DNA of 64,000 nt from NCBI RefSeq assembly GCF_013122565.1, contig NZ_CP053258.1. One strand, written 5' to 3'. This document shows positions 14,555 to 15,018 of this stretch, one piece after another. The stretch is from Escherichia coli. Lineage in GTDB: Bacteria > Pseudomonadota > Gammaproteobacteria > Enterobacterales > Enterobacteriaceae. The translations under genes and the position numbers were made by a program. The notes beneath the pieces are model-generated. The model searched no databases. It had not been told where the DNA came from and was given only the letters and a program-made list of their open reading frames with translations. The first letter of the stretch is position 1; every line of letters begins with the position of its first letter.

Positions 14555-14657
14555 AGGTAGCCCGCGTGATTACGCCTTTGTTTTCCCACAAAGTGTAGTC
14601 ATATATTCACGCGGCTTATAGTCAATAATATTGATCAAAAAAATGCAGAAATCTGAA

Positions 14658-14891
14658 TCAGTTGTCCAACTCACTCATATCCTTCACCCGATCGCGGTTA
14701 ATCTGTTCAGTTTGCCCGGTTTGCGCATTTTTGTAAGAGACCAGCCCGGTATCGTCATCAACCTGCGGTTTGCCATCGGTGACGATCGTTTGGTCATCGG
14801 TGGTTCTTACCGCCTGGTTTGAGGAGCAGCCAGCCATGGTGAACATTGCCGCCGCGGCGAAGATTGATGTGATCAATACTTTATTTTGCAT
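14658..14891 (-). CDS. Small lipoprotein, YgdI/YgdR-like
   Basis: 77-aa ORF with AGGA Shine-Dalgarno; signal peptide and lipobox (MAGCSS); motif TDGKP..DDDTGLVSY resembles YgdI/YgdR small lipoproteins (recalled). Confidence 0.7.
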   Translation of the reverse strand: MQNKVLITSIFAAAAMFTMAGCSSNQAVRTTDDQTIVTDGKPQVDDDTGLVSYKNAQTGQTEQINRDRVKDMSELDN

Positions 14892-14981
14892 CGTCTTTTC
14901 CTTTGCTTTGCTGTAGTAAGCATTCAGTTTAGGTTAACTGCATGAAAGCAAGTGAAAAAGCAGAAGGTTCTGAGGCGAGTT

Positions 14982-15011
14982 GCGCCCGGCAACAATAATG
15001 CTGCCGGGCGC
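14982..15011. other. 10-bp perfect inverted repeat immediately downstream of the carB stop
   Basis: gcgcccggca-acaataatgc-tgccgggcgc; GC-rich hairpin with no clear T-tract. Confidence 0.6.
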
Positions 15012-15018
15012 GGAGGGG

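Follow-up and report, generated by a model that had tools for sequence, protein, structure and literature searches.

We analysed a 64-kb stretch of Escherichia coli DNA (hereafter the window) in which kefF and carB, both on the - strand, are separated by a gap of only 464 bp, whose contents are one intact 77-aa lipoprotein ORF, on the same strand, and a 13-bp GC hairpin. An earlier note on this DNA had given the interval as 465 bp, which was nearly correct; the sequence and the ORF list both give 464 bp. The features that we consider are as follows.

14024..14554, - strand: kefF, 176 aa, first gene of kefFC (ORF list, tblastn match)
14555..14657, - strand: 103-bp spacer from the lipoprotein stop to the kefF start (homology to IAI39, K-12 and LH50-c)
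14658..14891, - strand: YgdI/YgdR-family (DUF903) prolipoprotein gene, 77 aa (translation, family HMM)
14895..14903, - strand: Shine-Dalgarno region AAGGAAAAG, its 3' end 4 nt before the ATG (read from the sequence)
14926..14932, - strand: CTAnAnT element, CTAAACT in the window (alignment of 64 upstream regions)
14961..14972, - strand: palindrome CAGA-N4-TCTG (CAGAACCTTCTG), ~45 nt upstream of the putative start
14982..15011, - strand: GC-rich hairpin with a 13-bp stem and a 4-nt loop (arms 14982-14994/14999-15011), 7 nt after the carB stop
14658..15025, - strand: putative ancestral segment, ~368 bp (BLAST breakpoints)
15019..18243, - strand: carB, 1074 aa, C-terminus ...AQIKK (ORF list)

The homologue of 14024..14554 is labeled kefF in the matching RefSeq records, and the KefF of the window has 98% identity to that of strain EC42405. 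In K-12 (NC_000913.3), carB ends at 34038 and kefF starts at 47246, so that the two genes lie 13,207 bp apart, and the gap between them holds caiF, caiEDCBAT, fixABCX and yaaU (hereafter the island); the earlier note had given this order, with about 13 kb between the genes, correctly. Its claim that the cai/fix/yaaU block is missing here was likewise confirmed, as a tblastn search with all 12 island proteins of IAI39 (CaiF, CaiE-T, FixABCX and YaaU) returned no match with E<=1e-3 in the whole 64-kb window. The 464-bp interval contains no IS, no scar and no island or yaaU remnant, and an Rfam scan of 14300-15300 at E<=1 yielded two chance-level matches only. The note had also allowed for an assembly artefact, that is, an island truly present in the genome and a contig mis-joined at carB/kefF. 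We consider this extremely improbable and found no point in its favor: the independent Logan assembly of SRR11451224 is 100% identical across 20,234 bp, the identical protein is encoded by a 4.82-Mb contig of E. coli in NCBI, the junction recurs in clade I, in a cryptic Escherichia and in more than 40 other genomes, and the junction consists of a conserved, selected gene at an orthologous position rather than a collapsed repeat.

The 77-aa ORF matches the model NF033216 'YgdI/YgdR family lipoprotein' with 94.9 bits (cut-off 42), residues 5-75 aligning with profile positions 2-71 of 71, in agreement with its earlier description as a YgdI/YgdR-like lipoprotein gene co-oriented with kefFC. PF06004 (DUF903) is precomputed on the identical protein (P0001) and on all homologues, and the protein matches the DUF903 structures 5cai (E 9e-17), 3bdu (1e-13), 2ra2 (5e-13) and 2jn0 (YgdR; 2e-11) in PDB. 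NCBI already annotates the identical protein (WP_171459847.1 / QJU25590.1). We located 81 orthologous lipoprotein loci, and seven orthologues are included in the alignment. The protein has a signal peptide and the lipobox M-A-G-C22 (MQNKVLITSIFAAAAMFTMAG-C22), with Ser at +2 of the mature protein, and C22 corresponds to the lipobox Cys of each of the seven aligned orthologues. Position -3 of the lipobox is Met in the window copy and Val in most orthologues; Met at this position is uncommon but tolerated. The prolipoprotein would be cleaved and lipidated at Cys22, and the mature protein appears to be a domain of ~56 residues with homology to the solved DUF903 structures. By the +2 rule, Ser at +2 leads to Lol-dependent outer-membrane sorting, so the Lol system should sort this lipoprotein to the outer membrane. 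At residue 33 the window copy has Asp where the same seven orthologues keep Gly (G33D). The dN/dS values against orthologues are 0.04-0.14 and the ORF is intact, indicating that the lipoprotein gene is under purifying selection.

The region upstream of the gene is conserved as well. Across 64 orthologous upstream regions from about 20 genera, the GGGA/AGGA of the Shine-Dalgarno region is kept and C60, T61, A62, A64 and T66 of the CTAnAnT element are invariant or at least 90% conserved, while in the palindrome block the same holds at >=90% for G22, A23 and T27-G31. The consensus of sigma-S promoters has the -10 element CTAYRCT, with C at -13. A strict sigma-70 scan found no promoter upstream of the lipoprotein gene. 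CTAAACT is likely to be the -10 element of the gene's own promoter, with C at -13 as in sigma-S-preferred promoters, and expression of the lipoprotein is probably induced by stress or in stationary phase, judging from this sigma-S-like promoter. The CAGA-N4-TCTG palindrome is a candidate regulator site; in Citrobacter, the upstream block that bears it comes directly after the yaaU stop codon. We also considered and rejected a structured 5' UTR, in which an inverted repeat would pair the upstream region with the Shine-Dalgarno region, as also occurs in Citrobacter folds. RNAalifold gave no consensus structure for the 64 upstream regions, and the 5' arm of the repeat lies upstream of the conserved -10 element; thus, a promoter plus operator is favored over a structured 5' UTR. 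On the other side of the gene lies the 103-bp spacer, which all ordinary E. coli retain between yaaU and kefF; the kefF promoter, TTGACT-N16-TATGAC, is probably located in it. As to co-transcription of the lipoprotein gene with kefFC, which the earlier note had raised, the sequence points both ways: the lipoprotein gene and kefF each have their own conserved upstream block, but a terminator scan found no terminator-like site between the two, in 14555..14657.

The hairpin behind carB, described earlier as GC-rich and perfect, is indeed present, but it is near-perfect: 12 of its 13 pairs are Watson-Crick in the DNA, and all 13 pair in the carB-strand RNA with one G-U. No second copy occurs in the window, where chance would give 0 matches, and the 86-nt stretch that contains the hairpin folds at -33.2 kcal/mol (z -5.3). 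It is not a canonical intrinsic terminator, having no U-tract (its tail is AACUCGCC), and a terminator scan of 14400-15150 reported 0 sites. A dispersed repeat (REP) was also considered and rejected, since the hairpin occurs in a single copy in the window and is unlike the REP consensus. A homologous GCCCGG...CCGGGC hairpin is found at the same position in the clade I and cryptic loci of Escherichia and in Enterobacter, Trabulsiella and Leclercia, and the GC hairpin was not found in the island-bearing E. coli or Citrobacter loci examined. This distribution is consistent with an ancestral carB 3' hairpin that would act as a transcript-end or stabilizer element.

Comparison with IAI39, K-12, LH50-c and 5,4xx other genomes delimits precisely what ordinary E. 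coli lacks. The BLAST breakpoints fall at 14657/14658 and at 15026-15029, and in ordinary E. coli the ~368-bp segment between them is replaced by the 13.1-13.2-kb caiF...yaaU island. On the kefF side, the homology of IAI39, K-12 and LH50-c reaches 14657/14658 and stops exactly at the stop codon of the lipoprotein gene; the gene is absent from every island-bearing E. coli examined, homology resuming exactly at this codon. The 364-bp core of the segment (14658-15021) has 94.0% identity to that of clade I EC42405 and 95.6% to that of a cryptic Escherichia but only 75-80% to those of other genera; a transfer of the lipoprotein segment from outside the genus was therefore rejected. The divergence of the core from clade I equals that of its immediate flanks (94.9-95.4% identity).

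The earlier note had proposed a synteny comparison with relatives, and this revealed the order carB-lipoprotein-kefF without the island (the empty-site order) in many genera. In 46 loci, carB is followed within 1.2 kb by the lipoprotein gene; most of these continue directly with kefF-kefC-folA, and in several kefF comes only after 3-6 kb of other genes. The genera include Enterobacter, Lelliottia, Kosakonia, Klebsiella, Raoultella, Buttiauxella, Cedecea, Trabulsiella, Leclercia, Franconibacter and others, and the carB-lipoprotein spacer of the window is collinear with that of Enterobacter, hairpin included. The order fix-yaaU-lipoprotein-kefF is found in Citrobacter, Pseudocitrobacter and Intestinirhabdus, and a complete Citrobacter locus reads carB (1074 aa)-caiF...yaaU-lipoprotein-kefF. 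E. coli and Citrobacter share the left junction of the island, which lies immediately behind the carB stop in both, with homologous carB-caiF spacers. In island-bearing loci, the yaaU stop and the conserved upstream block of the lipoprotein gene are separated by 0-15 nt, without a GC hairpin. Among the Escherichia species representatives of our GTDB scan, none carries the lipoprotein gene.

These comparisons suggest the following course of events. The original enterobacterial order would have been carA-carB-[GC hairpin]-[DUF903 lipoprotein gene with its own promoter]-kefF-kefC-folA. In the locus type of Citrobacter and E. coli, a 13-kb block of caiF, caiEDCBAT, fixABCX and yaaU would have been inserted right after the carB stop, with its far end directly before the lipoprotein promoter block, displacing ~50 bp including the hairpin. 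Ordinary E. coli would later have lost the lipoprotein gene and its promoter by a ~350-bp deletion with TTCAGA at both end points and, additionally, the last Lys codon of carB, whereas the empty-site copy would have been inherited within Escherichia along with its flanks. Since the window shows none of these derived changes, it appears to descend from a copy that never held the island. We therefore regard it as probable, though by no means certain, that the carB-kefF interval is an ancestral empty-site haplotype. The earlier note had left open whether the island was never acquired or was lost; the former is favored for this site, and loss by deletion is opposed by a lipoprotein gene and a hairpin orthologous to those of Enterobacter, Klebsiella and further genera.

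Excision of the island from an ordinary E. coli locus, either IS-mediated or by illegitimate recombination, does have precedents. The survey set comprised 5,426 complete E. coli genomes from RefSeq, with the window's own genome outside the set; caiT is absent from 28 of them (it is present at >=95% identity in 5,398), and in at least seven complete genomes (FCI23, Ec1120, 3PT etc.) an IS1 connects carB and kefF, in some cases along with a yaaU remnant. However, excision cannot create what an ordinary E. coli locus does not have in the first place, namely the lipoprotein gene, the GC hairpin and the final Lys codon of carB, and the interval in the window has no IS, scar or island remnant and a spacer collinear with those of empty-site genera. 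As the hairpin is missing from island-bearing loci and common to the window and Enterobacter, deletion of the island cannot yield the window sequence. Such a secondary deletion is thus very unlikely, being already largely refuted by the present data. The arrangement of the window itself occurs in only two of the 5,426 genomes, namely clade I EC42405 and one with the same allele. Our literature search found no paper on an island/empty-site polymorphism at carB-kefF. The state of the window is a rare but ordinary gene-content polymorphism.

The island seems to have been present for a long time. Its genes share 72-87% nucleotide identity between E. coli and Citrobacter, compared with 81-90% for the flanking core genes, and the nearest non-Escherichia CaiF proteins are only 76-77% identical, so that a recent transfer from Citrobacter to E. 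coli was rejected, the island being no more similar than the core. E. fergusonii also carries cai (PMC10653785). An island as diverged as the core, together with its presence in E. fergusonii, indicates that the island haplotype is old, and therefore that the two haplotypes have long existed side by side in Escherichia lineages or been exchanged between them, a pattern for which simple vertical descent is no neat explanation.

As to the lineage, the earlier note had taken longer ApaH (+2), ThrB (+1) and CarB (+1) proteins as signs of some divergence from K-12. The lengths are right, but they are less distinctive than supposed: ApaH has 282 aa in IAI39 too, and the extra residue of CarB is its ancestral C-terminus, with CarB of 1074 aa also in Citrobacter, Enterobacter and cryptic Escherichia, and of 1073 aa in E. 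coli s.s., where the last Lys codon has been lost at the island junction. The ThrB of the window has 311 aa and the C-terminus VLEIK. The lineage is nevertheless somewhat diverged, if modestly: K-12 matches the window at 97.3-99.1% identity, and the best of the 5,426 genomes at 98.0%. Identity of 97-99% to K-12 and IAI39 points to a rare E. coli-like lineage. Strain EC42405 belongs to clade I, for which the criterion is ANI >98.3% to clade I strains (PMC10100065); its identity to the window is 95.5% across carA-folA (11.5-21.4 kb) and 98.2% in 7.0-10.1 kb. Judged by local identity in the 64-kb window, which is not genome-wide ANI, the window is not clade I and lies nearer IAI39 and K-12. Between folA and apaH, the window has an insert of DUF4291, an ORF and an orphan ccdA; two ORFs of the insert have no NCBIfam or PADLOC match, the 155-aa ORF has no Pfam match, and PHROG gave chance-level matches only.

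Identity around the locus is mosaic, ranging from 93.9 to 99.6% per kb and varying with the comparison strain, which indicates that recombination has clearly been at work there. It is accordingly conceivable, if rather doubtful, that the lineage once held the island and that recombination in carB and kefF brought in an empty-site allele from another Escherichia, e.g., clade I or a cryptic clade; the haplotype would then still be ancestral, but imported instead of inherited. This allelic replacement would fit the mosaic identity over 11.5-21 kb, and the segment at 16-19 kb is nearer the cryptic-clade locus L004 (97.1-98.4%) than IAI39 (93.9-97.2%). Moreover, empty-site alleles are common in clade I (protein P0004 occurs in 547 index blocks), and the background of the window is that of ordinary E. 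coli, with 98-99% identity to K-12 and IAI39. However, no sampled donor fits, as the core differs by 4.4-6% from the alleles of clade I and the cryptic clade, no less than the flanks do. As far as the breakpoints, the flanks beside the core have their best matches in ordinary E. coli (99.2% for carAB from 15026 and 98.5% for the kefF side to 14658), no donor-like tract is visible, and an L004-like carAB allele is also found in 22 island-bearing E. coli genomes. Returning to a copy that never held the island, a further-reaching version is that the gain of the island and the loss of the lipoprotein gene are not ancestral to all E. coli: a lineage like E. coli s.s. would have kept the pre-island haplotype by descent while the island spread by recombination or selection, leaving few relic lineages, including clade I. 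We put this forward tentatively, as the less probable part of the reading; the window is at least 2% distant from each of the 5,426 complete genomes.

Because of the role of the cai/fix genes, we predict that the strain has no anaerobic carnitine metabolism, being unable to reduce L-carnitine or crotonobetaine to gamma-butyrobetaine anaerobically unless cai/fix genes lie elsewhere in the genome. The gut TMA/TMAO route starts with the conversion of L-carnitine to gamma-butyrobetaine (PMC10653785), and for dietary L-carnitine this conversion is predicted to be absent in strains of the window type. Against the default assumption, it is the K-12 order carB-cai-fix-yaaU-kefF that would be derived; the small lipoprotein gene would belong to the old core gene set of Enterobacteriaceae and have been lost from typical E. 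coli. PCR from carB to kefF (0.46 kb vs 13.2 kb) could serve as a cheap marker that would flag clade I and other atypical Escherichia. If the pre-island haplotype was indeed kept by descent, the site would mark a deep, largely unsampled E. coli branch and offer a natural experiment on the share of carnitine respiration in gut fitness. The locus reveals no new kind of system, and the lipoprotein gene is one that NCBI had already annotated.

The closest known counterpart is EC42405 (NZ_CP043414.1; lipoprotein WP_032183186.1), which has the same order folA-kefC-kefF-77-aa lipoprotein-carB-carA without cai/fix/yaaU at the site and shares the spacer lengths, the GC hairpin and the CarB end ...IKK with the window. 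Its lipoprotein is 94% identical to that of the window (5 substitutions), but it differs in having ccdAB between folA and apaH, where the window has the insert described above, and a one-codon deletion at residue 557 of CarB. K-12 and IAI39 have the same flanking genes, at 97-99% identity, and keep the kefF upstream spacer; however, these strains have a 13.2-kb island, no lipoprotein gene, no GC hairpin, a CarB shorter by one residue, and a different, U-tailed terminator behind carB. Citrobacter (CP101103.1, locus L092) resembles the window in its 77-aa lipoprotein orthologue (84-86% identical), which lies before kefF with the same upstream block, and in its CarB of 1074 aa ending in KK, but the island lies between carB and the lipoprotein gene and the GC hairpin is missing. 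Enterobacter, Kosakonia, Klebsiella and Buttiauxella share the empty-site order, a hairpin or terminator directly after carB, and the lipoprotein promoter block; the nucleotide identity of the first three to the window segment is 75-79%, and several genomes of this group, unlike the window, have spacers with REP-like elements or 3-6 kb of cargo between the lipoprotein gene and kefF. The E. coli proteins YgdI and YgdR (PDB 2jn0, 3fif, 5cai and 2ra2) have the same family model and size as the window protein and share its signal peptide and lipobox architecture and the DGKPQxDxDTG motif. The YgdI structure 2RA2 has been described as Sm-like (PMC5437024), and ygdI is reported to be RpoS- and Cpx-dependent (PMC5437024, PMC6153362). 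The window lipoprotein adds a third paralogue to YgdI and YgdR; it occupies a conserved chromosomal position of its own and is missing in K-12.

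The interval between kefF and carB measures 464 bp in the window, and none of the 12 cai/fix/yaaU island proteins has a homologue anywhere in the 64-kb window, so the island is absent here as the earlier note had claimed. The gene content given there for K-12 exactly matches the K-12 sequence, in which 13,207 bp lie between carB and kefF. An assembly artefact, raised in the same note as a possible refutation, is excluded, as a second, independent assembly agrees with the window at 100% identity along 20 kb, and many other genomes share the orthologous junction. The features of the locus, taken from the ORF list and the sequence, are as follows.

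11497-11976, minus strand, folA
between folA and kefF, minus strand, kefC
14024-14554, minus strand, kefF
14658-14891, minus strand, lipoprotein ORF, 77 aa
14982-15011, GC-rich hairpin with a 13-bp stem and a 4-nt loop, 7 nt past the carB stop codon
15019-18243, minus strand, carB, with carA next

The small gene in the interval does encode a lipoprotein as described: its 77-aa translation (MQNKVLITSIFAAAAMFTMAGCSSNQ...) scores 94.9 bits against the NCBIfam model NF033216 'YgdI/YgdR family lipoprotein' (cut-off 42), also matches the solved DUF903 proteins 5cai, 3bdu, 2ra2 and 2jn0, and is identical to WP_171459847.1/QJU25590.1 (Escherichia coli) in NCBI. The gene is intact in the window, is under purifying selection (dN/dS 0.04-0.14), and has a product of 77 aa across almost all genera. 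From family knowledge, the signal peptide would be cut between M-A-G and C22, the Cys would then be lipidated, and Ser at +2 would sort the protein to the outer membrane, leaving a mature domain of ~56 residues that is homologous to the solved DUF903 structures; the YgdI structure, 2RA2, has been described as Sm-like (PMC5437024). Codon 33 (14793-14795) encodes Asp in the window and Gly in 7 of 7 compared orthologues and in YgdI/YgdR (TTDDQ vs TTDG), and lipobox position -3 is Met rather than Val; this allele may be mildly impaired.

We searched one genome per species with the lipoprotein, and in the 80 loci obtained we located CarA/B, KefF/C, FolA and the proteins of the island. The order carA-carB-lipoprotein-kefF-kefC-folA is found in Enterobacter, Lelliottia, Kosakonia, Klebsiella, Raoultella, Buttiauxella, Cedecea, Leclercia, Trabulsiella, Huaxiibacter, Franconibacter and others, and thus the gene order of the window is the widespread, ancestral one. 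Citrobacter, Pseudocitrobacter and Intestinirhabdus have the order caiT-fixABCX-yaaU-lipoprotein-kefF, the full Citrobacter locus being carB(1074 aa)-caiF-caiEDCBAT-fixABCX-yaaU-lipoprotein-kefF. The island lies downstream of the lipoprotein gene (carB-lipoprotein-caiF...) in a Trabulsiella odontotermitis locus (L037, 9857-20228), and many Enterobacter, Lelliottia, Raoultella and Kluyvera carry 3-6 kb of extra genes between the lipoprotein gene and kefF (L007, L014, L059, L066). The interval between carB and kefF is a hot spot for repeated insertion; judging from sequence comparison, the island was inserted there, and the lipoprotein gene is an old resident lost from ordinary E. coli.

The left island junction is the same in ordinary, island-bearing E. 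coli (E. coli sensu stricto) and Citrobacter, with a homologous carB-caiF spacer directly after the carB stop codon. The CarB of the window is indeed one residue longer than that of K-12, because E. coli sensu stricto is without the final AAG (Lys) codon, and the ancestral protein has 1074 aa and a KK end. The clade I CarB (EC42405, L001) has 1073 aa as in K-12, but through a different change, since it keeps the KK end and has a separate one-codon deletion at residue 557. On the right side, a conserved block (TTCAGAGTGTTCTG...) precedes the lipoprotein gene in all genera, and in every island-bearing Citrobacter-type locus 0-15 nt separate it from the yaaU stop codon. Genomes with an empty site, including the window, have a strong hairpin between the carB stop codon and this block, of a GCCCGG...CCGGGC type common to Escherichia, Enterobacter, Trabulsiella and Leclercia, whereas no GC hairpin was found in island-bearing Citrobacter-type loci; therefore, the island replaces ~50 bp that contain the hairpin. 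In E. coli sensu stricto, homology to the window restarts exactly past the lipoprotein stop codon (TGA followed by TTCAGATTTCT), 4 nt beyond the yaaU stop codon. Since the promoter block also starts with TTCAGA, a deletion between the two TTCAGA copies reproduces this junction, and the lipoprotein gene may have been lost in this way. As hairpin, promoter block, lipoprotein gene and Lys codon are all missing from E. coli sensu stricto, deletion of the island cannot give the window. Of the two origins left open earlier, never acquired or lost, island deletion thus drops out, and the haplotype found in the window is the never-inserted one.

The best matches over 24 kb (20000-44000) among the 5,426 complete E. 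coli genomes searched are 98.0% identical (phylogroup F, for example IAI39 and CE10), identity to K-12 around the locus is 97.3-99.1%, and carAB is 99.2% identical to some E. coli strains. Since no complete RefSeq E. coli genome exceeds ~98% identity over long stretches, in a comparison set without the window's own genome, the lineage is rare; it is E. coli-like and mosaic. Per-kb identity along the window ranges between 94% and 99.7% according to the strain used for comparison. The intact 12.9-kb island is present in 5,378 of the 5,426 genomes, and caiT is present at ≥95% identity in 5,398 and absent in 28. Only two of the 5,426 cover the carB-lipoprotein-kefF junction, each with 94.9% identity; one is EC42405, assigned to cryptic clade I, which is sister to E. 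coli sensu stricto (PMC10100065). The clade I lipoprotein allele (P0004) is widespread among draft assemblies, always in the identical gene order, which also occurs in a more distant 'unclassified Escherichia' (L004) that is ~92% identical to E. coli in lptD-apaH. At least seven further complete genomes of E. coli have carB adjoining kefF, with IS1 at the junction and without the lipoprotein gene. Some ordinary E. coli show cai decay, through such IS1-mediated loss of the whole island (H3-H9) or, in E. coli LH50-c (L095, 10888-12105), an internal stop codon in caiB.

The 364-bp core (14658-15021) shares 94.0% identity with clade I, 95.6% with L004 and 75-80% with other genera, and the dS of the lipoprotein gene is 0.20 against the clade I allele, 0.15 against the L004 allele and at least 1.4, near saturation, against Citrobacter and Enterobacter, so that the segment is native to Escherichia. 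The distance of the core to clade I equals that of the adjoining flanks (94.9-95.4%). Import of the empty site through homologous exchange with some unsampled Escherichia lineage that has it would fit the mosaic region and the age of the island haplotype, whose genes are as diverged between E. coli and Citrobacter as core genes and whose nearest foreign CaiF is 76-77% identical; it would also fit the presence of cai in E. fergusonii (PMC10653785) and the finding of the lipoprotein gene in no Escherichia species representative in the one-genome-per-species scan. However, no tract resembling any sampled donor was seen around the locus, and ordinary E. coli alleles are the best match for both flanks up to the breakpoints, which favours inheritance with the flanks. 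We therefore regard import as rather unlikely, and consider it fairly probable that the empty site was inherited together with its flanks.

The hairpin reported after carB was found, and occurs once in the window; the 86-nt stretch containing it has a folding energy of -33.2 kcal/mol (z = -5.3). No U-tract follows it and the terminator scan does not report it, so read-through out of carAB is possible. Upstream of the lipoprotein gene, 64 orthologous regions have in common a CTAnAnT that hardly varies (window positions 14926-14932) and a CAGA-N4-TCTG palindrome (14961-14972). CTAnAnT resembles the sigma-S-preferred -10 element, which carries a C at -13. The paralogue ygdI is RpoS-dependent (PMC5437024, PMC6153362). 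CTAnAnT is thus the putative -10 of a stress-inducible promoter of the lipoprotein gene itself, and the palindrome a candidate regulator site. All E. coli retain the 103-bp spacer upstream of kefF; it includes TTGACT-N16-TATGAC, a probable promoter of kefFC itself. Since the terminator scan found no terminator between the lipoprotein gene and kefF, read-through into kefFC may occur. An imperfect direct repeat lies on both sides of the lipoprotein gene (14640-14657 and 14955-14975), reading AAAAA-GCAGAA..CTGA on the plus strand and TTCAGA...TCTGC on the gene strand; the CAGA...TCTG palindrome inside both copies may be a regulator site common to the lipoprotein gene and kefF. An 11-bp inverted repeat in the kefF leader/promoter region (14562-14572/14604-14614, CCGCGTGATTA/TATTCACGCGG, spacing 31 nt), also carried by K-12, may act as an operator or form a hairpin in the leader.

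The folA-apaH gap (10072-11492) is a second variable site in the window, with three ORFs.

10096-10695, plus strand, DUF4291 ORF
10731-11198, plus strand, 155-aa ORF with no Pfam, NCBIfam or PADLOC match
11297-11476, minus strand, orphan CcdA-like ORF, 59 aa, 45% identical to IAI39 CcdA, without ccdB

This cassette occurs in 543 of the 5,426 E. coli genomes (best identity 97.6%); IAI39 and EC42405 have ccdAB in the gap, whereas K-12 has nothing there. ApaH (9223-10071) has 282 aa in the window, IAI39 and EC42405; the two extra residues relative to K-12 are real, but they belong to a common allele where the gap is occupied, and are not peculiar to this lineage. ThrB is longer with an altered C-terminus, as claimed, with 311 aa ending in ...VLEIK* (53616-53640) against 310 aa and ...VLEN* in IAI39, and its TGA stop codon overlaps the thrC ATG (ATGA).

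The cai/fix genes have an established role in anaerobic carnitine reduction. As caiTABCDE, caiF and fixABCX are absent from the window, the strain should be unable to reduce carnitine or crotonobetaine anaerobically to gamma-butyrobetaine, if no copy exists elsewhere in its genome (for the context of the pathway, see PMC10653785). We found no published description of the carB-kefF polymorphism in the literature. It is a presence/absence difference of an ordinary kind, and it can serve both as a lineage marker and to correct a K-12-centred view of the locus. Public genomes already carry annotations for the protein, its family and this gene order, which is standard for many genera.
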